DNA from: an uncultured Akkermansia sp.
Lineage (GTDB): Bacteria; Verrucomicrobiota; Verrucomicrobiia; Verrucomicrobiales; V1-33
Reading direction: 5' to 3'
DNA: 64,000 bases
Assembly (NCBI GenBank): GCA_964523105.1
Contig: CAZFZN010000003.1
Coordinates: 251,707 to 315,706, forward strand
The position numbers and the translations under genes are program-made. Positions 2,248 to 29,003 of the stretch are shown piece by piece. The notes below the pieces were generated by a model, which did not search any database, was not told where the DNA came from, and saw only the letters and a list, made by a program, of their open reading frames with translations. Position 1 is the first letter of the stretch. Each line of letters opens with the position of its first letter.

Positions 2248-2414
2248 GGTAATGAGTCACGTCATAACGCGACGGCGCGTGACGGCTGCAACGATTTTCT
2301 CAATCCGCGGAGTCGAAAGGCATCGCGCCCATCCTGCCGGAGAAACAGACGCAGAGCCAGGTGCTGCAGTCGGGACCGCCGGCGTGGCGAGGCGGCCGGT
2401 TTCCCTAACGCCCG

Positions 2415-3473
2415 TCATTTATTGTTTCTGCCGAACACGAAAGGTTTCGCGTCCTCGATCTGGCTGGTCACATCGCCGTTGAGCGAGAGGATATTCTTCT
2501 CGACCTGGAGTTCCCTCTCGGGTTTTCCACTGCTGAAGTCGAGCTTGCTCATGTCGATCCAGACCACGTTGGGGGCGTCGGTGCTCTCGAAATAGTAGCG
2601 ACCGCCGGTCAGGTCCTGGACGGTCCTGAAGATGGTGCTGGAGACGTTCGGCTTTTCCGGATCGGGTTTTCCGAAGGGGACCGACACGTTGCGGATGACG
2701 CTGAACATGTACGCCGCCCCTTCATCCTGGTTGGTTGGCCTGGGCAGGCCGTCGGCATAATAGGCGGCACGCACGAACCGGTCAGTTGGAGTGCGCTCGC
2801 CGGGCAGCGGTTTGTCGCCGCCGAAGGTGCGGTACTGCTTCAGGTTCTCGATCTGCTTGTCGTAGGTGGGCTCGTTGGTCATCACGGTGAAGCGCTTGTC
2901 GTGATACACCTGCGCTTTGCCGCCGACATACTCGATCACTGCGGAATCGCCGGATTTGTCCGACAGCGAGATGTGCACCAGGGTCGGAAAGCCATTGGGC
3001 AGGATCAGAGGATCGATCTGAAACGTGATGGTCTTTTGCGCCTCGACGGCTTCGGCAACGGACGCGTAGTTGTCGAGGTAGTATTGTGCCCACTGCATGA
3101 TGCCGATGCCTTCCCGATTGGTGTCGCGCTTCCCGAAATCTGAAGCGCCGGCAAGATAAAGAATATGGGCGCTCAGGCCCTTTTCGTTGACGCCCTCATG
3201 GGTGCCGATGTCGTAGCCTGTGACGACCAGGCTGCCGTACTTTGACGTCCACTTGTGGGGGTTCTCGGCCACCGCCCCGGTTCGCTCAATCCCGCGCGGA
3301 TACACATGGAACGCCGAGTTGATTTTCTCCGTCCAGTCCTGGGTCCGGCCGACGAAGATATGCCCGTTGCCGGAGTTCCAGAGGACGCGCGAGCAGGGCA
3401 CGGCAGTGGTGGCCAGGGAGAGGGTGGTGATGCCATAAAGGGCATGAGCAAGGCAGCGTACGGATTTATTCAT
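2415..3473 (-). CDS. secreted choloylglycine-hydrolase-family linear amide C-N hydrolase (Ntn hydrolase), copy 1
   Basis: ATG at 3473. A signal peptide is followed by Cys (..TTAVPC/SRVLWN), the expected N-terminal nucleophile. The motifs KWTSKYGS, GVNEKGL, GDSAVIEY and MTNEPTYD are shared with the paralog at 9759..10808. Confidence 0.85.
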   Translation of the reverse strand: MNKSVRCLAHALYGITTLSLATTAVPCSRVLWNSGNGHIFVGRTQDWTEKINSAFHVYPRGIERTGAVAENPHKWTSKYGSLVVTGYDIGTHEGVNEKGLSAHILYLAGASDFGKRDTNREGIGIMQWAQYYLDNYASVAEAVEAQKTITFQIDPLILPNGFPTLVHISLSDKSGDSAVIEYVGGKAQVYHDKRFTVMTNEPTYDKQIENLKQYRTFGGDKPLPGERTPTDRFVRAAYYADGLPRPTNQDEGAAYMFSVIRNVSVPFGKPDPEKPNVSSTIFRTVQDLTGGRYYFESTDAPNVVWIDMSKLDFSSGKPERELQVEKNILSLNGDVTSQIEDAKPFVFGRNNK

Positions 3474-3580
3474 GAGGTTGGTTTATTGGGAAGCTTTGGC
3501 GGGTGTGGTTTCCTGCAAAAGAGAAGGGAGGCGGGCTGCAGAATTCCGGATGACGCTGGCTGATGGCAGGATGTTGAGGG

Positions 3581-5485
3581 TTAGCGGGGAGTGGCCATGG
3601 CGCCCATCATGTCAGACAGGAAGACGCAGAGGCAGGTATTGCAGCCGGGACCGGGAACGGCCGGCGGGACAGGCAGACCGAGGTCCGTGAAAGGTTTGCT
3701 GCGGGCGGCGGCCGCGAGGGCGCGGGAAAGGGTTTGGTCGCCAAGGTGGCGGCGCTGCAGGCTGCCGGTTTCCTTTTTACGCTCCGCCCCGGTCATGGCG
3801 AAAACGGAGACGCCTTCCTTGATGGTCTCGAGTCCTTTGATGCGGTCGAGATTTTCAGGGTCCACAGCCGTCGGGTCTTTACTGAGAATGATGAGATCGG
3901 CGAGCTTGCCGGGCTCGATGGAGCCCTTGGTCTTTTCCTCAAAGTGCTGCCATGCGGCCCAGAGGGTCATGGCCTTGAGGGCGGTCATCACATCCACGCG
4001 CTGATCGGGGCCAATGATGTCACCGGAACGGCTGCGGCGGGTGACGGTGGCGTCCAGCACGCGCATGGAGTCGGGGAAGGCGACGGGAGCATCGTGGTGA
4101 GAGGTGAATTTCATGCCGCGCTTCACACACCAGCCGGTGGGCGAGATGTTATTGGAGAGTGCAGGCCCGACGGTGTGATCGCGGTGCCAGTCGCCCCAGT
4201 AGAAGGTGTGCATGGGGAAGAGCGAGGGCAGCACACCGAGGGCGTTGCAGGAATCCACCTGGTCCTCACGGAGGAATTGGCCATGGATGAGCACTGGGCG
4301 GCGGTCACCCGCACCATGCTTTTTCTGTGCGGCATCAAGGCAGGCGATCAACTGATCCGAGGCGGCCTCGCCGTTGCTGTGGGTGAGGATCTGGATGTTG
4401 TTCGCGTAGGCCCAGTCGATGGCGTCGCGCACCTGTTCGGCCTGCGCGGCAGGATAGCCGGCATAGCCGGGCGGGTAGTTGCCCACAGGCTTGTAATAAG
4501 GCCGGTCGCGCCATGCCGTGAACCACTGCGGCGAGCCATCGATGGTGAGCTTGGCGCCGCCGACGCGGAAGCGGTTGTTGTAAGTGGCGCTGAACTTCGC
4601 CTTTATCATCTCACGGTCCACGAGGACGTCAGGATAGGTGACGACATCAATCTTGAGGCCGCCGGCATCCGCGACGGCCTGCATGGCCTTCACCGAAGAG
4701 GGCATGGAGCGGCCTTCCTGAGCCGTGGTGTAGCCAAAGCGGGCCCACAATTGTCCTCCTGCCTTCATGAAGGTGTCAGCGCCGTCCGGCCCGATGCGGC
4801 CAAGAAGTTTCAGCAGCGCGGTGTAATGCGCCGTCTCCTCCAGTGTTCCACTTGGTTCCTTGCCGTCCGCCTTGCGTTGGATAACGCCGCCCGCGGGATT
4901 GGTGGATTCAGCAGTAATGCCGCATACCTCCAGAGCCTTCGAATTCGCGCTGCTGAGGTGGCCGGATTGATGCATAATGATCACCGGGAATTCCGTGGTG
5001 ACCGCGTCCAGTTCCTCGCGCGTCGGGTGGCGCAGCTCGGCGAGCTGGGAGTTGTCGTAGCCAAACCCCACGACCACCTGGATACTGACCACCGCCTCTC
5101 TGTTGGCGGCGATCCAGTCCCGCAGGGTCTTTTGGAGGTCGGCGATGTTGCGCACCTCTCCGTCCGGCGGGGCCAGCAGGTTGGCGGAGAGCGCCTGAAT
5201 GCCGCCGCCGAAGACATGGCCATGGGCATCCACGAAACCAGGGAGCATGGCATGGCCCGCAAGGTCCGCGAGCTTTGTGGCGTCGCCTTTCGTCTTCAGT
5301 ACATCGTCCTTTTTCCCCACGGCGAGGATCCTGCCGTCTTTGACCGCGACGGCCTCGGCGCGCGGCGCGGAATCGTTGATGGTGATGACCGGACCACCGT
5401 GGTAGATGACGTCGGCGGTTTGGGCGGAAGCGTGGTTTAATGAGAACGCGCAGACTGCGGCGATGGTTTGATGTTTGATTTTCAT
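3581..5485 (-). CDS. secreted metal-dependent amidohydrolase (Amidohydro_3 / YtcJ-like), paralog A1, with Cys-rich C-terminal tail
   Basis: ATG at 5485 with a signal peptide. LPGFVDAHGHV is the HxH metal motif. ILTHSNGEAA and FTSHHDAPV are also present. By eye it is about 75% identical to 10888..12771. The tail ends GCNTCLCVFLSDMMGAMATPR. Confidence 0.85.
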   Translation of the reverse strand: MKIKHQTIAAVCAFSLNHASAQTADVIYHGGPVITINDSAPRAEAVAVKDGRILAVGKKDDVLKTKGDATKLADLAGHAMLPGFVDAHGHVFGGGIQALSANLLAPPDGEVRNIADLQKTLRDWIAANREAVVSIQVVVGFGYDNSQLAELRHPTREELDAVTTEFPVIIMHQSGHLSSANSKALEVCGITAESTNPAGGVIQRKADGKEPSGTLEETAHYTALLKLLGRIGPDGADTFMKAGGQLWARFGYTTAQEGRSMPSSVKAMQAVADAGGLKIDVVTYPDVLVDREMIKAKFSATYNNRFRVGGAKLTIDGSPQWFTAWRDRPYYKPVGNYPPGYAGYPAAQAEQVRDAIDWAYANNIQILTHSNGEAASDQLIACLDAAQKKHGAGDRRPVLIHGQFLREDQVDSCNALGVLPSLFPMHTFYWGDWHRDHTVGPALSNNISPTGWCVKRGMKFTSHHDAPVAFPDSMRVLDATVTRRSRSGDIIGPDQRVDVMTALKAMTLWAAWQHFEEKTKGSIEPGKLADLIILSKDPTAVDPENLDRIKGLETIKEGVSVFAMTGAERKKETGSLQRRHLGDQTLSRALAAAARSKPFTDLGLPVPPAVPGPGCNTCLCVFLSDMMGAMATPR

Positions 5486-5522
5486 ATCCGTTGGCGGCTG
5501 CTGTTTGGGAAGTGGTAGTGGG

Positions 5523-7532
5523 TCAGCGCGCCGCCGGGAAAATCAGTTCAGCGAGGAGGGGTCCGGTGGAACAGGAGCAGCCGGCATTCGCGCAGGAAGC
5601 AGCTTGTGTTTGCGCCATCAAACTGTCGCGCAGGAATTTAGGCATGGCCGGATCCGAAGCAGCCGGTGAAGCAGGGACGGCATCCGCAGCAAGGCCAGGT
5701 GTGGAAACAAGCCGCAGGGAGACAGGCCGGAAGTTTTCAGGCAGGCGGACCCCGGCGGTCTTCCTGCCGCCGGCCGTCTTCACGGGATGCACACGGCCTT
5801 CATGCACGGTACCCCAGACGGCGATGTCCTTGATCTTCGCGGCATCGCAAGTCACCGGGTTCTCGGCGAGGATGGTGAAGTTGGCAAGTTTGCCGGGGAC
5901 GATGCTGCCGATCTCTTTCTCCAACTGGAGCGAGTAGGCGGCTTCGAGCGTGATCGCTTTCAACGCGCCTTCGCGGCTGACCCGTTGCCCGGGAGCGGCG
6001 ACGCGACCCGACTGTGTGGTGCGGTTGACGCCGCAGTGCATGAGGAAGAGCGGCTGGGCGGGAGCCATCGGCATGTCGGAGTGATAGGAGTAGGAAATGC
6101 CGGCGCGTTCGACATCGCCCATGCGGACCATGCTGTTGGCGCGTTCGGGGCCGAGACCGGCCTTGCTGTAATTGTCCGCCAGCGCAGTCGGGTAGTAGGC
6201 GTTGGCGCTGACGATGGCGCCGAGGCGCTGGATGCGATCGACCTGGTCCTTCTGTGAGACGGCGAAGTGGACAATCACGGTGCGGTGGTCGTGGCGCGGA
6301 TGGCGGCGCATGTTTTTCTCCAGAGTGTTCAGCACCATGTCGAGGCCGGCGTCGCCGTTGACGTGGATGTGAATCTGATAGCCGGCGTCCCAATAGACGC
6401 GGAAGCTCCGCTCGAAGAAATCGAGGTCCATCATCCACTCACCCTTGTGGCCGTCGGTGTAGGGTTCGCGGACCTGCATGGCCTGCGAGTAGATCGCGCC
6501 ATCGGCGAAAAGTTTCACCTGCTTCGCCACATACTGGGTCTTTCCCTGGCCCCATGTGAGCAGCTTCTCGGTTTCGGGAATGACCTGATCATCGGGATGA
6601 GCGGCGGTGATGCTCTTGCCATCGGCAATGTAGTAGTAGCGGAAGGGCGTGGAGGGATCGCTGAACACGGCATTCTGCGCGTCCTGCAGCGGCTTGGAAA
6701 GGAGGCCGCCGGGTTCGCATCCCACGGTGATGCCATTGGCATGGAGGTATTCCTCCACGAAATGCAGGCCTTCGTCCAAACGCTGCGGCGTGAAGACCGC
6801 CGGAGCAATCAGCGGCAACACCGCGAACATGCCTTGCTCCCAGAAATGTCCTTCGTCGAAGTTCGACTGCTCCCTGGCGCTGCCCTCGAGTTTGTCATAC
6901 CAATCCCTGGTGACGCCGAACTTTTCCATCGCGACGCTGTTCAGATAAAATTCATGGCATGAGCGGTGCCACACCAGGATGGGACGGGTGGCGCTGATCT
7001 TGTCGAGATCGGCCCGGGTCAGCTTGCCGTGGAAGTATTGGTGAAACCCCCAGGTGAGCAGCAGGGCCTCCGGGTCCTCCAGTTTCGCGTGCGCATCTGT
7101 GAGGCGTTTGATGTAATCGTCATGATCCTTCGCGGCGGGCACCGTGCCGGAAGGCAGCACCCAGTCTTCGATGGCGATGATCTCGGAAGTCATTGCCAGC
7201 GCGGCGAGGAAGGGATGGTCGTGCTGTGCGATGAATCCGGGAACGATGACCTTGTCCGCGAAACGGCTATCGACCACATAAGGCTGGGCACCCGCCGCCT
7301 TCTTCAGCTGATCCAGGGACCCGACACCGAGAACGCGGCTGCCGACCACGGCGACGGCCTCGGCCATCGGTTTGCCAGGATCGAGGGTGATGATTTCCTT
7401 CGCGGTGTAGATGGTGGCGGAAGGAAGGGATGCGGTGGCGGCCGCCATGTCCTGGAGGGACTTGGTTTCCTCACCGGTGGCGGTGATGAGGCTCGCGCCG
7501 AAGAGGGCGAGTTGTGGGAGTTTGGCTTTCAT
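5523..7532 (-). CDS. secreted metal-dependent amidohydrolase (Amidohydro_3-like), paralog A2, with extended C-terminal tail
   Basis: ATG at 7532 with a signal peptide. PGFIAQHDHP (HxH-like), IHIHVNGDAG and YHSDMPMAP are present. The C-terminal ~80 aa are Pro/Ala-rich and end SCANAGCSCSTGPLLAELIFPAAR. Confidence 0.8.
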   Translation of the reverse strand: MKAKLPQLALFGASLITATGEETKSLQDMAAATASLPSATIYTAKEIITLDPGKPMAEAVAVVGSRVLGVGSLDQLKKAAGAQPYVVDSRFADKVIVPGFIAQHDHPFLAALAMTSEIIAIEDWVLPSGTVPAAKDHDDYIKRLTDAHAKLEDPEALLLTWGFHQYFHGKLTRADLDKISATRPILVWHRSCHEFYLNSVAMEKFGVTRDWYDKLEGSAREQSNFDEGHFWEQGMFAVLPLIAPAVFTPQRLDEGLHFVEEYLHANGITVGCEPGGLLSKPLQDAQNAVFSDPSTPFRYYYIADGKSITAAHPDDQVIPETEKLLTWGQGKTQYVAKQVKLFADGAIYSQAMQVREPYTDGHKGEWMMDLDFFERSFRVYWDAGYQIHIHVNGDAGLDMVLNTLEKNMRRHPRHDHRTVIVHFAVSQKDQVDRIQRLGAIVSANAYYPTALADNYSKAGLGPERANSMVRMGDVERAGISYSYHSDMPMAPAQPLFLMHCGVNRTTQSGRVAAPGQRVSREGALKAITLEAAYSLQLEKEIGSIVPGKLANFTILAENPVTCDAAKIKDIAVWGTVHEGRVHPVKTAGGRKTAGVRLPENFRPVSLRLVSTPGLAADAVPASPAASDPAMPKFLRDSLMAQTQAASCANAGCSCSTGPLLAELIFPAAR

Positions 7533-7622
7533 GGCTTTGATTGGTTCATTGCGTGGGGCGATTCGGGGTGCTCAGGACCTTATTTTAGAGAGTGGATGAG
7601 CGTTCGAAGCCCGATGTCGCGT

Positions 7623-8636
7623 TCAGCGGACCACCTCGGGCTTCGGGAAAACCCAGCTTCCGTCGAGCACCTTGGCCTTGGGGCGATACATTCGGACCGT
7701 GTAGTTCCAGCCGGGCATGATGCGGAGATAATTGTCCGCCTTGGGATCTCCGCCAAAGTTCACCGTCACGCTGCCGTCGGCGCCGCGCTTGGCGGTAACG
7801 CTGTTGAGCGAGGCGGCGCTGGCCGGTGCCTCGTAAAAGCCGTCCTTGTTGTAGACGGTGATGGACCAGAAGGCGTCCACCGGCACGTCCTTGACCTTGA
7901 GGCGCATGGCGGTCTCGCCGTCGTTTTGTTTGGGGACTTCGATCAGATAGAGCGCGTCTTTTTCGGCGTTGCCGAAAATGCCGCCGGCGGTGCCGATGAA
8001 ATGGCGCACGTCGTCCGTCTCCTCCTTTTTGCCGAAGGTCCGGCGGCTGTCGGGCATCCAGGGAGTCATGGTCAAGATGGCCTTGCGCAGGTTCGTTAGG
8101 CTCTCCTGATCCCAGTTCAGCACCTCGAAACTGCCGGGGCTGGCCTGGATCACTTTGATCGCGTCCTGGGCCTTGCGCATCTCCTCGATATCGGCCGGGC
8201 TGTTCGGATCCACGAGGGTGCGGAAGGTGACCTGGACATAGCGGGTCCCCATTTCCTCACGGGTGAAGGTGTAGGTGCCGGGCTCATAGATGGCGCGCTG
8301 GATGTAATGATCCTGGTTGATCACCAGCATGGATTGGAAGCGGCCGCCGATCTCGGGTTTGACGATGGTGAGCGGTTGGGTCAGGTCGAACACGCCGGTG
8401 CTATAGGGTGTGTCGCGGTTCATGCGGATCACGATTTGCTTGTCCACATCGACCGGACCGCGCTCATGGTGGAACTTACCGAAGGCTCCTTGCTCGAAGC
8501 GCTGTTTGAAGTAGCGATCGGTCTCGGCACGCACAAAGGTATCGACAGTGACAGGAATCGTCTCGGTCGCTGCGAGCATGCTGGTGGCCAGCAGGCAGAT
8601 GGCGGGAACAAGGGCTTTGAAGATCTGTTTCTTCAT
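7623..8636 (-). CDS. secreted DUF1254/DUF1214 domain protein
   Basis: ATG at 8636 with a signal peptide. NRDTPYSTGVFDL..GGRFQSMLVINQDHY is DUF1254-like and AFWSITVYNKDGFY is DUF1214-like (recalled motifs). Confidence 0.8.
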   Translation of the reverse strand: MKKQIFKALVPAICLLATSMLAATETIPVTVDTFVRAETDRYFKQRFEQGAFGKFHHERGPVDVDKQIVIRMNRDTPYSTGVFDLTQPLTIVKPEIGGRFQSMLVINQDHYIQRAIYEPGTYTFTREEMGTRYVQVTFRTLVDPNSPADIEEMRKAQDAIKVIQASPGSFEVLNWDQESLTNLRKAILTMTPWMPDSRRTFGKKEETDDVRHFIGTAGGIFGNAEKDALYLIEVPKQNDGETAMRLKVKDVPVDAFWSITVYNKDGFYEAPASAASLNSVTAKRGADGSVTVNFGGDPKADNYLRIMPGWNYTVRMYRPKAKVLDGSWVFPKPEVVR

Positions 8637-8693
8637 GGTGAATTCCGTTGAGTTATGAAAAGTCGGCCCAGGAGGCTAAGGAACCGGGTCAAA

Positions 8694-9599
8694 TCATGGC
8701 GTTGCAGGTTTGACCGCATCGGAGGGCGTGTGCAGAATGAACTCCACGATCAGTCGTTTGATATCATCACCGCGTTCGTTCAGCATGTTGTGGCCGCAGT
8801 TGGGAAGTGCGACCAGCCAGGCCTTTGGTCTGGCCTTGGCGATCATCAAGGCGCTTTCCGGCACTGCCACGAGGTCCTGCAAGCCGGTGAGAATCAGCAT
8901 GGGCGCGGTCCCGCCCAACCGCCACTGATCCTTCGGCGTGGCATCACTGGCTTTCGCTTGCGCGGCCGCCAGCTCGGGGAACTCACCTTGTGCCTGGTCC
9001 AGCTTGGCCAGTTCTTCGTTGCCCGGAGCATACATGAGTTCTCCCTGCAATTTCAGCCACTCTTCCTTGCTGGTCGAAGGGTCGAGGTAACGTTTGTATT
9101 TCTCCATGGTTTCCTTCGCCGGCAGGACCTCTCCGCCGGCACCGATCAGGATGACCCCCAGAACGCGCTCGGGATGATCCTGCGAAGCGGTTCGGACCAC
9201 CCGGTTTCCATAGGTCTTGCCGGCGAGGAACACCTTCTGCAACCCGAGGCCATCCGCGACTCTCCACACGTCATCCGCCCAGTCGTGCAGCGTCAGGTTG
9301 TCGATCCTGCCGGTGCTGGCACCCAGGGTGCGGTAGTTGTAGGTCACCACCTTGATTCCGTTCGCTGAAATGGCCTTGGCCAGAGCATCGAGTTGCGCCG
9401 CCGGACGACCATTGCCGGCCGCCATGATCAAGCTCACGGGGCCATCACCGAAAACAAAAGCCTCCAGTTGGAAGCCATCCGCTTGGATGATCTTTGCAAC
9501 GCCGCCGTTCTTATCCGCCTGGGCATGGCTCGAAGCCGCCGCGAAAAAACAAACCACAGGTAATAACCACAGGGTTCTGAATTGAGTCGGTGTTTTCAT
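8694..9599 (-). CDS. secreted alpha/beta-fold hydrolase with Thr at the nucleophile-elbow position
   Basis: ATG at 9599 with a signal peptide. The elbow reads FLAGKTYGN (G-x-T-x-G rather than G-x-S-x-G; the Thr codon is at 9213-9215). The acid and His candidates are TGLQDLV and NCGHNML. Confidence 0.7.
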   Translation of the reverse strand: MKTPTQFRTLWLLPVVCFFAAASSHAQADKNGGVAKIIQADGFQLEAFVFGDGPVSLIMAAGNGRPAAQLDALAKAISANGIKVVTYNYRTLGASTGRIDNLTLHDWADDVWRVADGLGLQKVFLAGKTYGNRVVRTASQDHPERVLGVILIGAGGEVLPAKETMEKYKRYLDPSTSKEEWLKLQGELMYAPGNEELAKLDQAQGEFPELAAAQAKASDATPKDQWRLGGTAPMLILTGLQDLVAVPESALMIAKARPKAWLVALPNCGHNMLNERGDDIKRLIVEFILHTPSDAVKPATP

Positions 9600-9758
9600 T
9601 TCTGTTCTGGATTGGGTGTTGAATGGTTCTTTTCTCTATTAGCCCCGTGTGTCCACGGCTTGCGGGGAGACTGCGACTGTCAGACCGCAGAGCGAGGCGA
9701 GGAGATGGCTGGCTCTCATGGGATTGGTGGCGTTTCCTATTCTGTCGCTGATCAAAAA

Positions 9759-10808
9759 TCAGAACGGGGCGCGCTCCGCTTTTTGGAAGCGCTCGGTCAC
9801 GTCGCCGGAAAGGGCGATGTTGTCGGGATCGAGCGTCATCACCGGGGCGCCGGGTTTGAGATCGAACTTCGTGAGGTCGGCCCACAGGACGTTGGGGCTG
9901 GTGGTCAGCTCGAAGAAGTAGCGGCGGGTGTTGAGGTTGATGGCGGTGCGGTATTCGGTGTTGTAGATGCCGAAGTCCTTGTAGGGCGCGCCGAAGGGAA
10001 CGGAGATGTTGCGGGCGATGGCGAGGAGGCCGGCGATGGCCTCGCGCTCGGACTTGGGTTCGGGCAGCATCGAGGTGAAGTAGGCGGCGCGCTGGAAGCG
10101 GTCCTTGGCATTGACGTTGCCGGGCAGCTTCGTGTCGCTGCTGGGCTTGGAGAAGTCGTGCTCTTTCAGAAGCGCGAGCTGCTCGTCGTAGGTCGGGTCG
10201 TTGGTCATGAGTCGGTATTCCTTGCCGTGATGCACCACTGCCTTGCCGCCGATGTATTCGATGATGGCGGAGTCGCCCGAGGCATCCTCGATGGCGAGGT
10301 GGACAGTGGCTTTGTGGCCGTTGGCCGACATCATCACGATCTGGACCTTGTCGAGCAGGGCCAGTGCCTCCTTCACGTCGGCGGCCTGATCGAGCAGGTA
10401 CTGGAGCCAGAGTCCGGCTTGCACGCCGGGCTTGCTGGCGTCGCGCGGTCCGAAATCGGTGGCCCTCAGATAGAGCATGTGGCCCGCGAGGCCTTTTTCG
10501 TTCACGCCATCGGCGGTGCCGACGCCGTAAACGGAGGTAATGAGGCTGCCGTATTTGGAAGTCCACTTGGCGGGGTTTTCCTTGTCCACCTCCACGGGGC
10601 CGGCCATGCCGCCGTTCCTTTCCATGCCGGCGGGCAGGATGGTGAGGATGGGCATGGTGGACTCCGGCCAGTCCATGGTGCGGCCGGCGATGACGGCGAG
10701 CTGGTTGTTGTTCCACAGGATGCGGCTGCAAGCATCGGCGGCGGGGCTGATCGCGGCGACCAGGGTGGCTGCGGTGAAGATGGCGAGGTGTTGTTTTGTT
10801 GGTTTCAT
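9759..10808 (-). CDS. secreted choloylglycine-hydrolase-family linear amide C-N hydrolase, copy 2
   Basis: The ORF-track frame extends to 11063, but the Pro/Thr-rich extension overlaps the upstream gene. ATG at 10808 gives MKPTKQHLAIFTAATLVAAISPAADA/CSRILWN, a signal peptide followed by the nucleophile Cys. It shares KWTSKYGS, GVNEKGL, GDSAIIEY and MTNDPTYD with copy 1. Confidence 0.85.
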   Translation of the reverse strand: MKPTKQHLAIFTAATLVAAISPAADACSRILWNNNQLAVIAGRTMDWPESTMPILTILPAGMERNGGMAGPVEVDKENPAKWTSKYGSLITSVYGVGTADGVNEKGLAGHMLYLRATDFGPRDASKPGVQAGLWLQYLLDQAADVKEALALLDKVQIVMMSANGHKATVHLAIEDASGDSAIIEYIGGKAVVHHGKEYRLMTNDPTYDEQLALLKEHDFSKPSSDTKLPGNVNAKDRFQRAAYFTSMLPEPKSEREAIAGLLAIARNISVPFGAPYKDFGIYNTEYRTAINLNTRRYFFELTTSPNVLWADLTKFDLKPGAPVMTLDPDNIALSGDVTERFQKAERAPF

Positions 10809-10887
10809 GGTGTTGGTTGGAGACTTGGTGGGATGAGGCGGTCCGCCTTCGGACGGGCTAACGCTTCTCAGTTTTATTGGAGCTTGG

Positions 10888-12771
10888 TTACCGGTTTCCT
10901 GTGGCGATCGCTTCACCGAATTTCGCCATGAAGCCGCAGAGGCAGCCGCCGCCGTGGGCGTGGGCATGATCGTGGCCGTGTTCGTGGTCGTGGGCTTCGG
11001 CGACGGCGAGCATGGCGCGGGTGAAGGCGAGTTCGGAGGGGTCGCCGGGTTGCAGGCTGGCACCGGCCTTCTTCAGGCTGGCGATGTTGAAGATGGTGAC
11101 GCCTTCCTTGATCGTCTCCACGACCTTGATCTCGTCGATGTTTTCCGGGTCGATGGCAGTGGGATCCTTGTCGAGGATGACGAAGTCGGCGAGCTTGCCG
11201 GCCTCGATGGAACCTTTGCTTTTCTCCTCGAAGTGCTGCCAGGCGGGCCAGATGGTCATGGCTTTGAGGGCGGTCATCACATCGACGCGCTGGGCCGGGC
11301 CGATGATGTCGCCCGAGCGCGATCGGCGGGTGACGGTGGCATCGAGCACGCGCATCGAGTTTGGGAAAGCGACGGGCGCGTCGTGGTGGGAGGTGAATTT
11401 CATGCCGCGGTTCACGCACCAGCCGGTGGGGGAAATGTTGTCGGCCAGTGCGGGGCCGACCGTGTGGTCGCGGTGCCAGTCGCCCCAATAGAACGTGTGC
11501 ATCGGGAACAACGAGGGAATGACAGAGAGGCGATTGAAGGAATCGATTTGGTCCTCACGAAGAAATTGTCCGTGGATCAGCACCGCTCTGCGATCACCCC
11601 CGCCGTGCTTGCGGGAGGCGGCATCGATCGCGGCGATCAGAAGGTCGGAAGCGGCTTCTCCGTTCGAGTGGGTGAGGATTTGGATCTTGTTCTCGTAGGC
11701 CCAATCGATGGCTGAAATCACCTGTTCCCCGGTGGCCGCAGGATAACCGCGATAGCCAGGCGGATACTTCCCGACGGGAGCGTAGTAAGGCCGGTCGCGC
11801 CACGCCGTGAAACCCTGGGGCGATCCGTCGATGGTGAGTTTCGCCCCTCCCACGCGGAGCCTGTTCTTGTATTCCTGAGTGACGTTTTTCCTGATGAACT
11901 CCCGGTCCACCAGGACATCGGGATAAGTCACTACGTCGTTTTTGAATCCACCCTCATCCGCCACGGCTCGCAGGATATTGGCGACCGCAGGAACCGAGCG
12001 GCCTTCCTGGGCCGTGGTGTAGCCGAAGCGCGCCCACAACTCCGCGCCGGAGCGGGCGAACTGCCTGGCACCCTCGGCACCGGCCCGCGACAGCAGTTTC
12101 ATGACCACCGGAAACCCCGCGGTTTCCTCGAGCACCCCGTTGGGCTCCTTGCCATCGTCGCCGCGGCGGATCACTCCCCCGGCCGGGTTGGGGGTTTCCG
12201 AAGTCACGCCGCAGACTTCCAGCGCCTTCGAGTTCACGGCGAAGAGGTGGCCGGACTGGTGGACGATGCACACGGGAATGTCCCTCGAAACCTGATCGAG
12301 GTCCTCACGCGTCGGGTGCCGCAACTCCGCGAGCATCGCATTGTCGTAGCCGAAGCCGACAATGAGCTGGATCTTGTCCACGGTGGCCTGGTTCGCACTG
12401 GTCCATTCCTTCAAGGTCTGGACCAGCGACGTAATGTCCTTCACCTCGCCATCGGGTGGAGCCAGCATGTTCGCCGAGAGCGCCTGGATGCCGCCCATGA
12501 ACACGTGGCCGTGGGCATCGACGAAACCGGGGAGCAGGGTTTTTCCCGATAGATCGACGAGCTTGGTGGTGTCGCCTTTGGTTTTGAGAACATCGTCTTT
12601 ATTACCGACAGCGAGGATTTTCCCGTCCTTCACGCCGACGGCTTCGGCGCGCGGCGCGGAGTCGTCGATGGTGAGGATGGAGCCGTTGTGATAGATGGTG
12701 TCGGCCGTCTGCGAAAAAGCGGTGAAGGTTAAACTCAGAAGCGCGGCGATCAGTGTTGGTGTTGTTTTCAT
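10888..12771 (-). CDS. secreted metal-dependent amidohydrolase (Amidohydro_3 / YtcJ-like), paralog A3, with His-rich + CxC C-terminal tail
   Basis: ATG at 12771 with a signal peptide. LPGFVDAHGHV and ILTHSNGEAA are present. The tail reads HDHEHGHDHAHAHGGGCLCGFMAKFGEAIATGNR. Confidence 0.85.
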   Translation of the reverse strand: MKTTPTLIAALLSLTFTAFSQTADTIYHNGSILTIDDSAPRAEAVGVKDGKILAVGNKDDVLKTKGDTTKLVDLSGKTLLPGFVDAHGHVFMGGIQALSANMLAPPDGEVKDITSLVQTLKEWTSANQATVDKIQLIVGFGYDNAMLAELRHPTREDLDQVSRDIPVCIVHQSGHLFAVNSKALEVCGVTSETPNPAGGVIRRGDDGKEPNGVLEETAGFPVVMKLLSRAGAEGARQFARSGAELWARFGYTTAQEGRSVPAVANILRAVADEGGFKNDVVTYPDVLVDREFIRKNVTQEYKNRLRVGGAKLTIDGSPQGFTAWRDRPYYAPVGKYPPGYRGYPAATGEQVISAIDWAYENKIQILTHSNGEAASDLLIAAIDAASRKHGGGDRRAVLIHGQFLREDQIDSFNRLSVIPSLFPMHTFYWGDWHRDHTVGPALADNISPTGWCVNRGMKFTSHHDAPVAFPNSMRVLDATVTRRSRSGDIIGPAQRVDVMTALKAMTIWPAWQHFEEKSKGSIEAGKLADFVILDKDPTAIDPENIDEIKVVETIKEGVTIFNIASLKKAGASLQPGDPSELAFTRAMLAVAEAHDHEHGHDHAHAHGGGCLCGFMAKFGEAIATGNR

Positions 12772-12804
12772 GGAGCAGTAGTGAGGAGGTTTGCGCCCGT
12801 CCTG

Positions 12805-14958
12805 TCAGCTCTTCTTGAACTCCAGTCCCGGATCACCCTCGGGCGCGCCGATGAGGACAAACTTCATGTCCTTGTCGCCGGTTAGGGTGACTTCCGAAAT
12901 CATCTGGGAGTCTTTGCCGGTGAGGACGAGCAGGCCCTTGTCGTTGAGGCCGTAGGTTCCCTTCATTTCGGTCTTCTGGTCGCCGTTCATGTAGGACCAG
13001 GTGTAGTTGCCGTCGGCGGCCATGGAGAAAGTGACCTTGCCGTCCTGGCCGCGGTCGCTGACCCAGTTGCCGACGAGTTTGTCAGGGGCCACGGGGGCCG
13101 GGCGATCGACGGGCGCATCGTCCACCTCGCCGTCATCGGGCAGGGAACTTTTCGCGAGATCGCGCAACTGGTGGGCGGTGCCGTCGGCGGGCTGAAGTTT
13201 GGCGGTGATTTCAAACTCGGCATAGGCCTGGTCCATGTGGTCGGTGACGAGGTAGTGGTAGCCGAGCACGAAGTGTCCCTCGGCGGCGTCGGGCTTGCCT
13301 TTCACATAGTCCTCCAGCTTGCGGAGCTGATGGGTGTAGGTGGAGGAGGAATCGTAGAAACCGACCATGGTTTCCCAGCCCCAGCCGGGGCCGGAGGCGA
13401 GGACGGGATTGAGCACGCCGGCGGATTCGGCGTATTTGCCGAGCGCGAAGAGGACCAGCGCGCGGTATTCGTGGAGCGTCACATCCCCGGGCGTGTAGCT
13501 GATGGCTTCATCCACCGTGCTCATGGCGGTGACGTAGTCGCCTTTCTTGAACGCCGTCCGTGAACGATCGAGGGCTTCGGCGGATTTGGTTTCGGCGGTA
13601 GTCGCGGTAGCTTCGTCACCGGGCGGGGCCTTGGCGGCGCTAACAGACAGCGGCTGGGTATAGACCACCGTGGTGTTTTGCACCGGCGGCGCCGGATAGG
13701 GGTTCCGGTAGGTCTGGTAGCCCATGTCATAGATCATGTTGCCCATACTCCAGGCGGCGATGCCCCACATGAGACCTTTGGCGAAGTCGTCATCGTCATC
13801 GTCATACCACCAGCAGCGGTGATAGTGGTGATGATTGTAGCCATAGCCCCAGTGGCCGTGGTGCCATGAGTGGCAATGACCCGCGCCCCACCACGGACGC
13901 GCGCCCCAGTAGTTGGGACGGTAGGAGTAATTGAAGCTGTTCCGGAAGTTGTTGTTGATATTGATGTTCACATTGTTGCCAATGTTGACCCGGTTGCCCC
14001 AGATGCTGTTGTTGCCGCCCCATCTGCCGGTGTCCCAGTTGGGCACGCGCGCCGGAAGGGTGGACGGCCGGTTGAGCCCGATGTTCTCGCGCCCGATGTT
14101 GATGTTGTCGATATGGACGGGGTTCCGGTTTCCGATGTTGATGTTATCGCGCCCGGGGCCACCGATGCCAGGGCGAGTGTTGCCGGGCCGGTTCGGATAG
14201 GTGATCATTCCTGGCAGGGTGGAGGGCCGGCTGGTGCCGGGACGATTGGCCAGCGGGCCGTCGTTATTGCCGGGGCGGTCGAAACCCGGGCGGTTGTTGT
14301 CGCCGGGGCGGTTGAATCCGGGACGGTTGTTGTCGCCGGGACGCAGCCCGGGAAGATTGTTGCCGGGCCGGTTGTCTCCCGGGCGGAGGTTGCCGGGGAG
14401 TGTTTCCGGGCGGTTTTGGCCCGGGCGGAGATTCCCCGGGCGGTTGTCAGGAAGATTGTTGCCAGGGCGCTCGCCCGGTCTGGTTTCCGGCCGGTTGAGG
14501 CCGGGGCGGTCGCCGCCGCCCGGCCGGGTCGGGCCGGGGCGGGTTTCCGGACGGTTAGGGGCCGGCGCCGGCCGCGTCGTGGGCCGCTCTACGGAGGGAC
14601 GCCCGGACGGCCGGGTCTGCGGACGCTCCACGGGCCTTGCCTGCGGACGCTCCGCGGGCCGGGTTTGAGGACGGGCCGCGGGCCGGGTCTGAGGACGGGC
14701 TGCGGGCTGCGGCGCAGGACGGGAGACGGGGCGTTGAATCTTGGATCCTGTGGCGGGATTCCGGGGCGCGGAGACCCCGGGACGCGACACCCCGGGACGT
14801 GACATACTGGGACGCGACATGCTGGGACGCGACATGCCTCCGCCTCTGGAGGCGCCGGCGGAACCTTTTCCCCTGCCGACGCTGCCGCGGGCTTCGAGTT
14901 CCGGAACAGCAGCGCTCAAACTGAGGAGCGCGACGACATAGACACTGAATGGTTTCAT
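12805..14958 (-). CDS. secreted low-complexity (Pro/Arg/Gly/Asn-rich) protein with a His/Trp-rich acidic core and TPR-like C-terminal half
   Basis: ATG at 14958 with a signal peptide. About 320 aa of xRPxxRP and NRPG repeats follow, then GHCHSWHHGHWGYGYNHHHYHRCWWYDDDDDD. After that come TPR-like helices (GDYVTAMSTVDEAI..YRALVLFALGKYAESA..GHFVLGYHYLVTDHMDQAYAEFE) and a small beta-rich C-terminal domain. Confidence 0.7.
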   Translation of the reverse strand: MKPFSVYVVALLSLSAAVPELEARGSVGRGKGSAGASRGGGMSRPSMSRPSMSRPGVSRPGVSAPRNPATGSKIQRPVSRPAPQPAARPQTRPAARPQTRPAERPQARPVERPQTRPSGRPSVERPTTRPAPAPNRPETRPGPTRPGGGDRPGLNRPETRPGERPGNNLPDNRPGNLRPGQNRPETLPGNLRPGDNRPGNNLPGLRPGDNNRPGFNRPGDNNRPGFDRPGNNDGPLANRPGTSRPSTLPGMITYPNRPGNTRPGIGGPGRDNINIGNRNPVHIDNINIGRENIGLNRPSTLPARVPNWDTGRWGGNNSIWGNRVNIGNNVNININNNFRNSFNYSYRPNYWGARPWWGAGHCHSWHHGHWGYGYNHHHYHRCWWYDDDDDDFAKGLMWGIAAWSMGNMIYDMGYQTYRNPYPAPPVQNTTVVYTQPLSVSAAKAPPGDEATATTAETKSAEALDRSRTAFKKGDYVTAMSTVDEAISYTPGDVTLHEYRALVLFALGKYAESAGVLNPVLASGPGWGWETMVGFYDSSSTYTHQLRKLEDYVKGKPDAAEGHFVLGYHYLVTDHMDQAYAEFEITAKLQPADGTAHQLRDLAKSSLPDDGEVDDAPVDRPAPVAPDKLVGNWVSDRGQDGKVTFSMAADGNYTWSYMNGDQKTEMKGTYGLNDKGLLVLTGKDSQMISEVTLTGDKDMKFVLIGAPEGDPGLEFKKS
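14611..14706. repeat. 4 x 24-bp tandem repeat encoding (A/V)(A/E)RPQ(T/A)RP
   Basis: The units ccgggtctgcggacgctccacggg / ccttgcctgcggacgctccgcggg / ccgggtttgaggacgggccgcggg / ccgggtctgaggacgggctgcggg were read directly from the sequence. Confidence 0.85.
14771..14835. repeat. about 4.3 x 15-bp tandem repeat encoding (M/V)SRP(S/G)
   Basis: The units gagaccccgggacgc / gacaccccgggacgt / gacatactgggacgc / gacatgctgggacgc / gacat were read directly from the sequence. Confidence 0.85.
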
Positions 14959-14979
14959 GGTGCGGGAGTGGCTGAGATT

Positions 14980-15966
14980 TTATTTTTCCGGCGCGGCTTC
15001 GGTGTCGGCGGGGTCCGGCGCAGGCTCGGTGACAGCGGGCTCCGGTGCCTGCCGCACGACGCTCAATTCATTGTCAGGCAGGCTCTCGCCATCGATCAGG
15101 CGGTCGCGGCTGATCCATTTGAAGGCATCCTTGCCGTCCAGAACGATGCGCTGGGTGGCGCTGGTGGATTCTCCGTCGGCGGTGGTGCCCTCCATGCGCA
15201 TTTGCCAGCCGTCATCCGTGGGCGTCCAGTCCGTTTTGGAGAAGCCGCCGCCGTCATCAAACATCCAGGCGGTCACGGTCTTCCTCGCTGCATCCCAGCC
15301 CAACCGGAAAGTGGTGGTCATCGGCGGGGCATCCGCTTTGCTGACGAGAAGCTTGCCTGCCAGGAATTTGCCGGATTCATGCCAGCCGACGGCGAGGTCG
15401 AAGCGGGTATCATCCTTTTGACTGGTCCAGTCCCCCTTCAGGCTGTCCGCGAGATCCGCGAGGTGGCCTTCCGCGCTGGTGGCGTCACCGAGTGACCGGG
15501 TGCCGGCGATGAGCCATGCTCCTCCATCCACCTTCTTCAAAACCGCCGTGTAGTTCACCGAGCGGGCCGGCTCATCCTCGCCTGGCGGCGTGTAATGAGC
15601 GGTACCGTCCTCGATGGCGAGGTCGGCGGCAACGAGCCGCACCGAACTGACTTCGACCGCGAGGGACGGCACCGTTTCCCCGCGAAATTCCTCTTCATAG
15701 TGAGCCTTGATCGCGGCGCGCCCGGAGGTGATTTCTTCGCCCTTCAGGTCCGCCATTTCCCCGGATTCGGTGAACAGGGCCGCGAGCGCGGCCGCGTCCC
15801 TGTTATTATAGGCAACGACGAAATCCGCGGCCGCCTGGCGCAATCCTGCGATTTCCGGCGAAGGTTCCTCCTCTGCGCTGTCCACAGCGGGCGGCGGTTC
15901 CTTTTGATTCTGCGCGCACAAAGATGCGGCCAGACCGGCGAACAGGGTCAGTGTCAGGAGTTTCAT
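14980..15966 (-). CDS. secreted NTF2-like (DUF4440/SnoaL/SgcJ-type) domain protein
   Basis: A signal peptide is present. LRQAAADFVVAYNNRDAAALAALFTESGEM is typical of DUF4440/SgcJ-like NTF2 folds. A second related half and an acidic Pro-rich tail follow. Confidence 0.65.
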   Translation of the reverse strand: MKLLTLTLFAGLAASLCAQNQKEPPPAVDSAEEEPSPEIAGLRQAAADFVVAYNNRDAAALAALFTESGEMADLKGEEITSGRAAIKAHYEEEFRGETVPSLAVEVSSVRLVAADLAIEDGTAHYTPPGEDEPARSVNYTAVLKKVDGGAWLIAGTRSLGDATSAEGHLADLADSLKGDWTSQKDDTRFDLAVGWHESGKFLAGKLLVSKADAPPMTTTFRLGWDAARKTVTAWMFDDGGGFSKTDWTPTDDGWQMRMEGTTADGESTSATQRIVLDGKDAFKWISRDRLIDGESLPDNELSVVRQAPEPAVTEPAPDPADTEAAPEK

Positions 15967-16132
15967 GTGTTATTCAATGGTTTGGAGATTGGACTCACGG
16001 AGGAGAGGAAACGGGACGGGGTGCCGCACCGGCACACCCGGGAAGATCCGCCGCCGTCCCGTCCTCTATATCCGTGGGAGCAATTTTTGATATAGGACCA
16101 AGTGCCCACGCCGCCCCGGTGCGCAGTCTGAT

Positions 16133-16759
16133 TCAGCGCGGCGGCACCGCGGGGGAAACGCCAGCCTCTTTTGCCAGTTGGAGCATCCCGGCGACAGACG
16201 AAATGCCCAGTTTGGCAGTAATCTGACCGCGGTGGTTTTTGATCGTCTTTTCGGCCGCTCCGAGCACGTCGCCCACCTGCTTGTTCAGAAGGCCCGCAAT
16301 CAGCAGCCGGAAGACTTCAAGTTCGCGCCCGGTGAGTTTTGCCAGTCGTTCCCTTGCATTGCGTGCGGCACCTTCAGCTCTCGCAATTTCCGCGGCCCTG
16401 GCCAAAGCGCGGCGCACGGCTTCGAGCAGTGCCTCGCTGCTGAACGGCTTCGACAAAAAATCCACCGCCCCCGCTTTCATGGCCGCCGCACACATGGGCA
16501 CGTCGCCGTGAGCCGTGATGAAAACGATCTGATCGTTCCGCCCCGCCGCGAGCAGCCGTTCCTGAAGCTGCGTACCGCTCAAGCCAGGCATTTTGACATC
16601 CAGCACAAGGCAGCCGGGAACTCCGCGCACCGGCTGTGCCAGGAACGCCCCGGCGGAGGCAAACGTCTCCACTTCAAGGCCCGCGGCAGTGAGCACACGC
16701 GCCAGACTGCGGCGCACGGAATCGTGGTCGTCTATAACGGAAACGAGCGGACGGGTCAT
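16133..16759 (-). CDS. FixJ/LuxR-family response regulator (REC + GerE-type HTH)
   Basis: The receiver motifs are VIDDHDSVR, LVLDVKMPGLSG and DFLSKPF. The C-terminal LTGRELEVFRLLIAGLLNKQVGDVLGAAEKTIKNHRGQI is a LuxR-type HTH. Confidence 0.9.
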   Translation of the reverse strand: MTRPLVSVIDDHDSVRRSLARVLTAAGLEVETFASAGAFLAQPVRGVPGCLVLDVKMPGLSGTQLQERLLAAGRNDQIVFITAHGDVPMCAAAMKAGAVDFLSKPFSSEALLEAVRRALARAAEIARAEGAARNARERLAKLTGRELEVFRLLIAGLLNKQVGDVLGAAEKTIKNHRGQITAKLGISSVAGMLQLAKEAGVSPAVPPR

Positions 16760-18606: not shown

Positions 18607-18658
18607 ATCTCCGCATCAAGTAACCGTCCGCGTCGCCCTGTCCAACGCCGCGCCGCGG

Positions 18659-24003: not shown

Positions 24004-24062
24004 GAGTTCACGGTGGATTGGAGTGAATGGCAGGCAGAAAAGGACAGGGCGCCGGACGCGGC

Positions 24063-28919: not shown

Positions 28920-28925
28920 AGGGGA

Positions 28926-28957
28926 TTTTGGCAGAATAATGGGGGCAGAATGATGAT
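28926..28957 (-). repeat. start-proximal leader element, copy 1 (reads ATCATCATTCTGCCCCCATTATTCTGCCAAAA on the minus strand, then TCCCCT-ATG of 24063..28919)
   Basis: Read directly from the sequence. It forms an imperfect inverted repeat with copy 2 about a centre near 28967. Confidence 0.8.
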
Positions 28958-28977
28958 TTGAGAAGACTTCTTCGCTT

Positions 28978-29003
28978 ATCATTTTGCCCCCATTATTTTG
29001 CCC
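28978..29003 (+). repeat. start-proximal leader element, copy 2 (ATCATTTTGCCCCCATTATTTTGCCC, then ATCCCCTGCC-ATG of 29014..29802)
   Basis: Read directly from the sequence. Confidence 0.8.

Follow-up and report, generated by a model that had tools for sequence, protein, structure and literature searches.

A gene island for putative exported amide hydrolases, including apparent relatives of bile salt hydrolases of the metal-dependent type, in a contig of an uncultured verrucomicrobium

We analysed a 64,000-nucleotide stretch of contig CAZFZN010000003.1 (positions 251,707 to 315,706 of the forward strand; assembly GCA_964523105.1, uncultured Akkermansia sp.), referred to below as the window, which carries an island of seven minus-strand genes for predicted exported proteins. 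Two of them encode choloylglycine hydrolases (CGH1 and CGH2), three encode amidohydrolases (A1, A2 and A3), and the other two encode a DUF1254/DUF1214 protein and an alpha/beta-fold protein with a threonine at the nucleophile elbow (Thr-ABH). The presence of two CBAH-family and three PF07969 genes within 10.4 kb is a non-chance pattern; among about 170 loci fetched through homologs, similar combinations were restricted to the nearest relatives. The island contains the following features:

2415..3473, minus strand: CGH1, predicted exported enzyme of the choloylglycine hydrolase family, of the Cys-Ntn (N-terminal nucleophile) type, with which the island ends
3581..5485, minus strand: A1, predicted exported dinuclear-metal YtcJ-like amidohydrolase (PF07969) resembling metal-dependent bile salt hydrolases (mBSHs)
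3584..3688, minus strand: C-terminal tail of A1, TDLGLPVPPAVPGPGCNTCLCVFLSDMMGAMATPR
5523..7532, minus strand: A2, predicted exported PF07969 amidohydrolase of a distant subfamily
5526..5615, minus strand: C-terminal tail of A2, ...SCANAGCSCSTGPLLAELIFPAAR
7623..8636, minus strand: DUF1254/DUF1214 protein, predicted exported, short 337-aa form
8694..9599, minus strand: Thr-ABH, predicted exported, with the Thr129 codon (9213-9215) at the nucleophile elbow
9759..10808, minus strand: CGH2, predicted exported Cys-Ntn hydrolase of the choloylglycine hydrolase family
10888..12771, minus strand: A3, predicted exported dinuclear-metal amidohydrolase (PF07969) resembling mBSHs, paralog of A1
10891..10992, minus strand: C-terminal tail of A3, HDHEHGHDHAHAHGGGCLCGFMAKFGEAIATGNR

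The open reading frame (ORF) list confirmed all seven genes at exactly the coordinates given in an earlier note on this DNA, within a run of minus-strand genes that continues without a break from at least 24198 down to 2415. The note had also assigned signal peptides to all products. By a simple hydropathy heuristic, a basic N-region followed by a hydrophobic stretch was indeed found in 7/7 proteins, with CGH1 the weakest case. Its statement that all of them have hydrolase folds stands for six proteins, which belong to hydrolase families, and fails for the DUF1254/DUF1214 protein, which has no demonstrated hydrolase fold. None of the seven reached the cut-off of an equivalog or subfamily model in NCBIfam. 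The island ends with CGH1, and convergent plus-strand genes (TylF-like and ELM1-like) follow beyond it. Recent horizontal acquisition was considered and rejected: the GC content at third codon positions of the island genes is 0.71-0.87, like that of the flanking genes.

The amidohydrolases matched Amidohydro_3 (PF07969) with 338 (A1), 160 (A2) and 358 bits (A3) at a cut-off of 29.7. They measure 634, 669 and 627 aa, respectively, and A1 and A3 have a mass of about 68 kDa; A2 is only about 26% identical to either of them. The dinuclear site of the family (HxH, Lys, His, His, Asp) is complete in all three. In an alignment of 85 sequences including A1, A2 and A3, the metal ligands H87, H89, K311, H368, H400 and D464 (A3 numbering) were invariant. 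According to both sequence comparison and a Foldseek search against the PDB, the closest solved structures are the uncharacterised Pyrococcus YtcJ-like proteins 3icj and 3igh (22-23% identity). The AlphaFold2 (AF2) model of A3 has a confident core, and its best PDB match was 3icj.

To our knowledge, the deconjugation of bile salts was attributed only to Cys-Ntn hydrolases before two preprints of April 2026. One of these describes BwBSH1 of Bilophila wadsworthia, a secreted 101-kDa PF07969 enzyme with dinuclear zinc that hydrolyses taurine-conjugated bile acids; the binding of the sulfonate is assigned to Ser194, Gln381, Asn443 and His544, and the H196A variant is inactive (10.64898/2026.04.05.716592). 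The other identifies a PF07969 enzyme of Turicibacter faecis and its homologs as taurine-selective metal-dependent bile salt hydrolases (BSHs). In the enzyme of Beduini massiliensis, the same set, as Ser144, Gln290, Asn337 and His393, was assigned to the sulfonate, and the exchanges S144A, Q290A and N337A reduce the hydrolysis of taurodeoxycholate. The same study reports genomes in which canonical BSHs of complementary scope occur alongside an mBSH (10.64898/2026.04.05.716488). In both preprints, the organisms that carry the metal-dependent enzymes are gut bacteria, and in one of the two they are mostly Desulfovibrionaceae (10.64898/2026.04.05.716488, 10.64898/2026.04.05.716592). Around the T. 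faecis enzyme, the cluster was delimited by a DIAMOND e-value below 1e-150, its tested members being at least 40% identical (10.64898/2026.04.05.716488), and, in the sequence similarity network around BwBSH1, by at least 31% identity and an alignment score of 122 (10.64898/2026.04.05.716592).

We compared the window proteins with seven homologs of the Turicibacter enzyme taken from Table S3 of 10.64898/2026.04.05.716488, using the first ~399 residues of each. A1 and A3 were 34-37.5% identical to them over 405-415 residues (pairwise E-values of 1e-67 to 1e-87), A2 only 21-26%. In the MAFFT alignment, S173, H175, Q319, N370 and H425 of A3, like S174, H176, Q320, N371 and H426 of A1, fall on S144, H146, Q291, N338 and H394 of the mBSH homolog MGYG000000115_01897, whose positions correspond to S144, Q290, N337 and H393 of B. 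massiliensis. This residue set is also kept in members of the A1/A3 family from Prosthecochloris (Chlorobi), Desulfopila (Desulfobacterota), Thioalkalivibrio (Gammaproteobacteria) and Ruegeria (Alphaproteobacteria). In pairwise alignments, the Ser, Gln and Asn of the set were missing from 3icj and from the epsilon-lysine acylase SgELA. A2 retains Ser191, His193 and Asn392, but Tyr348 replaces the Gln and Tyr447 the His, so that it lacks two of the four taurine residues of the mBSHs.

A1 and A3 therefore share with the mBSHs the PF07969 fold with its ligands (HxH, carboxylated Lys, His, His, Asp), the Ser-x-His motif together with the Gln, Asn and His of the sulfonate site, and 3ICJ as the closest solved structure. 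BwBSH1 is secreted, as A1 and A3 are predicted to be, and mBSHs coexist with Cys-Ntn BSHs in genomes just as A1 and A3 lie near CGH genes here. There are differences, too. The Turicibacter-type enzymes of Table S3 start at the catalytic domain without a leader, whereas A1 and A3 have one. BwBSH1, a protein of 101 kDa, carries an extra C-terminal domain, while A1, A2 and A3 have only a tail of about 60 residues after the catalytic domain. The hosts of mBSHs are gut organisms, while that of A1 and A3 appears to be an environmental bacterium of the Planctomycetes-Verrucomicrobia-Chlamydiae (PVC) type. Taken together, A1 and A3 look like exported mBSH relatives that keep the sulfonate-recognition set, and this is the strongest functional clue in the island. 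Bile-salt-like conjugates had been one of several candidate substrates in the earlier note and now receive specific support from these residues.

The explanation that we prefer, tentatively and with somewhat less than even confidence, is that the island may be a lineage-specific mosaic of exported enzymes that, in the periplasm or on the cell surface, would jointly deconjugate amphiphilic N-acyl amides whose head group resembles taurine (a sulfonate or another anion). The substrate class, which we infer as we do the co-operation of the enzymes, would have as candidates bile salts conjugated with taurine, N-acyl taurines and related sulfonolipids. A1 and A3, exported through Sec, would take taurine or other sulfonate head groups by means of the Ser/Gln/Asn/His set and a carbonyl-polarising His. 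A2, with the same fold, Ser and Asn but a Tyr in place of both Gln and His, would presumably accept another head group. CGH1 and CGH2 might widen the range of head groups or acyl chains, as has been proposed for coexisting canonical and metal-dependent BSHs in gut genomes. The DUF1254/DUF1214 protein, the Thr-elbow protein and a pair of NTF2-like and TPR proteins encoded upstream would be conserved companions. The more general suggestion of the earlier note, exported amide-bond hydrolases plausibly acting jointly on an N-acyl or conjugated amide, agrees with the families, the catalytic residues, the leaders and the recurrent neighbourhoods.

The family assignment of the two choloylglycine hydrolases is firm, as judged from their sequences. 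They scored 187.4 (CGH1) and 212.7 bits (CGH2) against CBAH (PF02275; cut-off 20.4). Cys27 of both proteins (codons 3393-3395 in CGH1 and 10728-10730 in CGH2) directly follows the leader and aligns with Cys1, the first residue of mature 5j9r; as in other Gram-negative choloylglycine hydrolases of PF02275, removal of the signal peptide would expose the nucleophile. The catalytic Arg, Asp, Asn and Arg positions are kept as well, since GRT(M/Q)DW, MTN(D/E)PT and DRF(Q/V)RA align with the corresponding motifs of 5j9r. A start at ATG 10808 gives CGH2 349 aa, which is the length of most close homologs. Within its family, 65-75% identity is kept between lineages as different as Halomonas, Microbulbifer, cyanobacteria, Acidobacteriota and Planctomycetota. 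Both proteins matched the Gram-negative clade of 5j9r, 4wl2, 3hbc and 6ufy (labelled choloylglycine hydrolase) with E-values of 1e-57 to 1e-82. We take 5j9r and 4wl2 to be the penicillin V acylases of A. tumefaciens and P. atrosepticum and 6ufy to be the bile salt hydrolase of B. thetaiotaomicron. Compared with the known enzymes of this clade, the scores of CGH1 and CGH2 lie far below the equivalog cut-offs, and the two fall into two subclades (41% identical).

These matches bear on a different explanation, namely that the CGHs are acylases of N-acyl-homoserine lactones (AHLs) or of penicillin V, with the amidohydrolases acting on the released products or on related lactams. Quorum quenching or the cleavage of beta-lactam or phenoxyacetyl amides would fit the fact that 5j9r and 4wl2 are the best solved relatives of both CGHs. 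AHL acylase activity of penicillin V acylases is reported, together with an analysis of two Shewanella CGHs, in a preprint (bioRxiv 10.1101/788646). However, 6ufy of the same clade was matched equally well (CGH1: E-values of 3e-82 for 5j9r and 8e-82 for 6ufy; CGH2: 2.6e-72 for 5j9r), and the penicillin V amidase equivalog NF058572 gave only 79 and 38 bits at a cut-off of 600. We saw no luxI/luxR-type genes, and such a function explains neither the three PF07969 enzymes nor the mBSH-type residues. We consider this function quite improbable.

All three amidohydrolases end in a tail with a His-rich or Pro-rich linker, then G-C-x-C, then an amphipathic segment of 12-15 residues. Across 85 homologs, the two Cys (C610 and C612 in A3) are near-invariant. 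Which form the tail takes tracks the host lineage and not the enzyme subfamily: Verrucomicrobiota, Planctomycetota, Desulfobacterota, Chlorobi and Sulfurovum have CxC, Beta- and Gammaproteobacteria have one Cys following His, Rhodobacterales have an AHxxLH motif with no Cys, and some members have no tail. Since residues 568-627 of A3 have a predicted local distance difference test score (pLDDT) below 50 in the AF2 model, the model does not inform on how the tail might dock. As to a sorting signal, no other credible ORF of the window carries the tail, and it matched no C-terminal sorting model of NCBIfam. The tail might be a built-in means of loading metal into an enzyme exported through Sec, or it might act as a cysteine switch or anchor the protein in the envelope.

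The order of an amidohydrolase gene followed by a CGH gene does occur twice in the island, and the earlier note saw in it a duplicated two-gene unit that had diverged asymmetrically, with A1 and A3 about 75% and the CGH copies about 45% identical. The measured identities are lower, 67.9-69.2% for A1/A3 and 41.4-42.1% for CGH1/CGH2. The repeated order and the 68-69% identity of A1 and A3 would be expected from a recent tandem duplication of the cassette, but every member has a closer ortholog elsewhere. A3 has homologs with 81-87% identity on other contigs, and the closest orthologs of A1 (in L011, L014 and P0091) are 77% identical. CGH2 has homologs with 88-95% identity, and CGH1 has orthologs with 89% (L088), 87% (L174) and 85% (L137). 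Orthologs of A2 in L086 and L088 are 85-86% identical. CGH1 is only 40-46% identical to 120/120 representatives of the CGH2 family. Identity at third codon positions is down to 50% in A1/A3 and 52% in CGH1/CGH2, and the two amidohydrolase-CGH spacers are unrelated, a 15-nt match being their sole common stretch. In addition, relatives carry CGH2-A2-CGH1 or CGH2-CGH1 instead; because the closest relatives order these genes differently, amidohydrolase-then-CGH is not a conserved unit. A recent duplication is thus hardly credible, and the two pairs are juxtaposed ancient paralogs without a duplicated cassette.

We examined the neighbourhoods of related genes in other genomes, including a sample of 80 genome loci of the A1/A3 family (60-77% identical) from Verrucomicrobiota, Planctomycetota, Desulfobacterota, Sulfurovum, Acidobacteriota, a metagenome-assembled genome (MAG) labelled Kuenenia, and Alpha-, Beta- and Gammaproteobacteria. 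The same families recur as neighbours elsewhere, in differing orders. For example, L088/L089 reads NTF2-TPR-OprB-CGH2(92%)-A2(86%)-CGH1(89%)-NTF2-TPR-sulfatase, and L174 has AraC-DUF-CGH2(93%)-CGH1(87%)-double DUF, without an amidohydrolase and with a CGH gene adjoining a DUF gene. L137 contains CGH2(73%)-CGH1(85%), and L090 an amidohydrolase 52% identical to A1, followed by CGH2(88%). L086 contains A3(83%)-DUF-A2(85%), and L085 and L087 contain A3 orthologs alone. Outside this group, two alphaproteobacterial MAGs (L034 and L017) carry A3(71%), DUF, ABH(59-72%) and A2. The betaproteobacterial loci have the orders AH-ABH(67%)-DUF(81%) in Paucibacter (L175) and AH-DUF(80%)-transporter-OM264-A2(48%) in Uliginosibacterium (L176), where AH stands for amidohydrolase.

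Among the 80 loci, DUF1254/1214 genes were found in 7-9, further PF07969 paralogs in 8, the OM264 family in 7 and sulfatases in 10. The cross-phylum core consists of the A1/A3-type amidohydrolase, DUF1254/1214, the A2-type amidohydrolase, Thr-ABH and OM264, with CGH as an accessory. The first four of these occur in Verrucomicrobiota, Alpha- and Betaproteobacteria. CGH joins the core only in the nearest relatives of the window and sporadically in three other lineages: a Thioalkalivibrio, a Hyphomicrobiales MAG and a Prosthecochloris locus found apart from the 80-locus sample. These CGHs are only 26-39% identical to CGH1 and therefore belong to other CBAH subfamilies that were recruited independently. 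In L011, the locus of one of the closest A1 orthologs, the region 7710-8137 upstream of DUF-A1(77%) contains short stretches that resemble CGH1 and CGH2 (42-48% identity over 50-80 residues), probably the remains of a decayed CGH gene.

OM264 is a secreted family of about 264-270 aa without a Pfam match, putatively a small outer-membrane protein, and is absent from the window. It lies directly beside A1/A3-type genes in several phyla (L003 7121-7951, L038 11863-12669, L068 11891-12685, L074 7800-8606 and L176 12833-13642). The A3, CGH2 and DUF families keep 60-80% identity over many phyla, an unusual degree of conservation for secreted enzymes. It implies that an invariant substrate constrains them strongly or else that old transfers were frequent.

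The island might also have no common pathway: genes for secreted hydrolases that are useful individually, on different substrates, would have accumulated in it as they do in PVC genomes rich in genes. Its gene order is not conserved, most A1/A3-type and CGH2-type genes are solitary, and no shared promoter, terminator or RNA element was found (scan of 1500-19500; Rfam on 1-25000). On the other hand, low-copy families co-recur far above chance: the expectation for finding such neighbours within 10 kb would be well under 1/80 loci, by our own estimate that assumes one or two copies per genome and not by a computed null. This applies to the counts of DUF1254/1214, PF07969 paralogs and OM264 given above. 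Thr-ABH was found in four loci outside the window contigs, in three of them directly beside amidohydrolase or DUF genes and in the fourth (L034) within the same locus, and CGH and DUF are adjacent in L174. Such re-association across phyla in shuffled order is a classic signature of functional coupling, and we argue for coupling on this ground despite the fluid gene order. An unrelated assortment of hydrolases is accordingly improbable in our view.

The protein encoded at 7623-8636 contains the Pfam domains DUF1254 and DUF1214 (53.4 and 36.7 bits). Its AF2 model (pLDDT 92.5) matched only uncharacterised structural-genomics entries in a Foldseek search against the PDB, namely 3u07 (E-value 1.8e-20), 3vb9 (1.8e-16), 2p3y and 6ans. 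With VPA0735/VPA0106 (3vb9, 2p3y, 3u07) it has a two-domain fold in common (E-values of 1e-16 to 1e-20), although at 337 aa it is shorter. A literature search on DUF1254/DUF1214 turned up no functional study. The window protein is 80-81% identical to betaproteobacterial proteins from PF07969/ABH neighbourhoods (Paucibacter, Uliginosibacterium). The protein encoded at 8694-9599 belongs to Abhydrolase_1 and has Thr129 in GKTYG where CumD (GNSFG) and an esterase (GNSIG) have the nucleophilic Ser. It thus lacks the Gly-x-Ser-x-Gly elbow of serine hydrolases but keeps the triad positions of His (CGHN) and Asp (LQDLV). The motif GKTYGNRV, including the Thr, is conserved in the homologs of L017, L034 and L175, which are 59-72% identical and lie beside amidohydrolase or DUF genes.

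In Paucibacter sp. KBW04 (L175 1459-11047), an A2-type amidohydrolase, a 74-aa putative lipoprotein, Thr-ABH and DUF are encoded on one strand. The genes that precede them on this strand encode a sugar/glycerophosphodiester-type ABC transporter (SBP_bac_1, two permeases and a MalK-like ATPase) and a GDPD glycerophosphodiesterase, which may connect the locus with the salvage of lipid head groups or of phosphate.

The Paucibacter locus has to be weighed together with the possibility that N-acyl lipids whose head group is not a sulfonate are scavenged in general, such as N-acyl amino acids, aminolipids (ornithine or glycine lipids), ceramides and N-acylethanolamines; the amide would then be split by the amidohydrolases and CGHs and an ester-linked acyl chain by the alpha/beta-fold protein. 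The salvage context directly upstream of AH-ABH-DUF would suit such a role, as would the missing Gln and His of the sulfonate set in A2. The CBAH family also includes acid ceramidase and N-acylethanolamine acid amidase. SgELA/SmELA, a YtcJ-like epsilon-lysine acylase, acts on N-lauroyl-lysine (PMC10699109), so that a member of the same metal amidohydrolase family as A1 and A3 cleaves a fatty N-acyl amide. Yet SgELA is only 23-26% identical to A1 and A3 by BLASTP and has Asp, Gly and Ile in place of the Ser, Gln and Asn that these share with the mBSHs. Moreover, the alpha/beta-fold protein has Thr and not Ser at the nucleophile position, and there are no lipid-transport genes within the window island. 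We regard this kind of scavenging as rather unlikely.

Several observations weigh against the preferred explanation, the joint deconjugation of taurine-like amides. With 34-37.5% identity to the mBSH homologs, A1 and A3 stay under the 40% of the enzymes tested by experiment. Our alignment was built with the listed homologs in place of the B. massiliensis, T. faecis and BwBSH1 sequences themselves, and the Ser/Gln/Asn/His set might also occur in NfdA of A. pascens, a relative that is not a BSH. The CGHs reached only 108 and 72 bits with the bile salt hydrolase equivalog NF038245 (cut-off 350), and penicillin V acylases of their clade are reported to cleave long-chain AHLs as well. The source appears to be an environmental bacterium of the PVC type, for which bile salts are no obvious major substrate. 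The A1/A3-type gene is usually solitary (as in L085, L087, Desulfopila and Rhodobacterales). The pairing of amidohydrolase and CGH, whose conservation in other genomes the earlier note had made a test of its idea, was seen within 10 kb in only 2/80 genome loci of the A1/A3 family, those of Thioalkalivibrio and the Hyphomicrobiales MAG, and in 0/80 metagenome loci of the CGH2 family, many of which are on short contigs. Finally, six loci were listed for a check on taurine genes (three Rhodobacterales, Desulfopila, a deltaproteobacterial MAG and Sulfurovum); in the four scanned, no taurine or sulfonate genes lay beside the A1/A3-type gene, the neighbours being unrelated (MurJ, TrkH, DEAD helicase, M90 peptidase, acyl-CoA dehydrogenase, APH). 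The gene context in the sampled loci thus lends the taurine reading no further support.

The A1/A3 branch comprises at least about 8000 clusters at 90% identity and retains 60-87% identity over at least 10 lineages. Among these are many that metabolise sulfur or taurine, namely Desulfobacterota, Chlorobi, Sulfurovum, Thioalkalivibrio and Rhodobacterales. It is possible, though we find it doubtful, that A1 and A3 stand for a very large branch of metal-dependent taurine-amide (bile-salt-type) hydrolases that is environmental and exported through Sec and whose lineage-dependent His/Cys tail may load or gate the dinuclear metal site in the periplasm, and that together with the CGHs, the DUF protein and Thr-ABH they would form an undescribed periplasmic route by which taurine or other sulfonates are freed from lipid or steroid conjugates outside animal guts. 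If A1 and A3 work as their residues suggest, the chemistry of the gut enzymes would be widespread in environmental bacteria in an exported form, and metal-dependent chemistry would here be physically linked to the canonical Cys-Ntn enzyme family. This would bear on how, in waters, sediments and soils, taurine and other sulfonates are set free from their lipid and steroid conjugates, and would provide a first functional handle on DUF1254/DUF1214 and on the alpha/beta-fold subfamily with the Thr elbow. If this reading of A1 and A3 is false, the island is an ordinary mosaic of secreted hydrolases.

Upstream of A3, the gene run continues with the following features, which agree with the description in the earlier note according to Pfam and NCBIfam:

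12805..14958, minus strand: low-complexity (R/P/G/N-rich) and TPR protein, exported, weak TPR matches
14980..15966, minus strand: NTF2-like (DUF4440/SnoaL; SgcJ/EcaC) protein, exported, always paired with the TPR protein
16133..16759, minus strand: FixJ/NarL-type response regulator (NF006900, 174 bits), linked to the island by adjacency only
16756..18606, minus strand: histidine kinase with a periplasmic solute-binding-like domain (HisKA, HATPase_c), 4-bp overlap with the regulator gene

The TPR protein has one homolog each in L010 and L014 and two in L088 (50-60% identical), all encoded next to related hydrolase genes, and the NTF2-like and TPR pair is a companion specific to Verrucomicrobiota. 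The members of the adjacent pair are 43-64% identical between the window (12805-15966), L088 (5590-8581 and 14549-17255), L010 (12221-15064) and L014 (17027-19863). Further features of the TPR protein are a stretch rich in His and Trp, six consecutive Asp residues and a hydrophobic segment. The regulator stays under the 255-bit cut-off of the FixJ equivalog, and the ABC_sub_bind match of the kinase is marginal (26.7 bits at a cut-off of 25.9). Homologs of the regulator occurred near an amidohydrolase gene in L006 and L014 only; those of the kinase, near such a gene in the same two loci, were limited to the core (residues ~380-612), and its sensor domain had no homolog in the related loci. A conserved FixL/FixJ-type linkage of sensor and regulator with the hydrolase genes is therefore not seen, and it is from adjacency that two-component control of the island may be surmised.

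Co-transcription of the seven genes appears plausible, because they lie on one strand with spacers of 21-166 bp. A scan of 1500-19500 gave 5 promoter-like sites (3.2 expected), which is background, and 26 terminator-like sites compared with 15.0 in shuffles (standard deviation 3.5), most of them within coding sequence; for these reasons the scan yields no usable operon evidence. Rfam had no RNA family match on 1-25000. A weak terminator-like hairpin with a T-run at 9760-9778 overlaps the stop of CGH2 and precedes the 159-bp spacer that lies upstream of the ABH gene. Transcripts of A3-CGH2 and of ABH-DUF-A2-A1-CGH1 may be separated at this point.

Upstream of the kinase gene lie an asparagine synthase gene and then a gene for a LamG protein. 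Of two very large minus-strand ORFs upstream of the island, 20620-24198 encodes 1192 aa with three LamG-type repeats and Ig-like domains. As listed, it overlaps by about 135 bp with minus-strand ORF 24063-29051, which encodes a 1662-aa CotH/LamG/lamin-tail-domain protein. With sulfatases, DUF1552, WD40-bearing Ser/Thr kinases and CotH, the rest of the window has the genes that one typically finds in PVC bacteria. The sulfatase genes of the window (41142-42674 on the minus strand and 44962-46392 on the plus strand) are about 30 kb off the island; in L014, L028, L034, L088, L090 and L174, sulfatase genes directly adjoin the related hydrolase genes.

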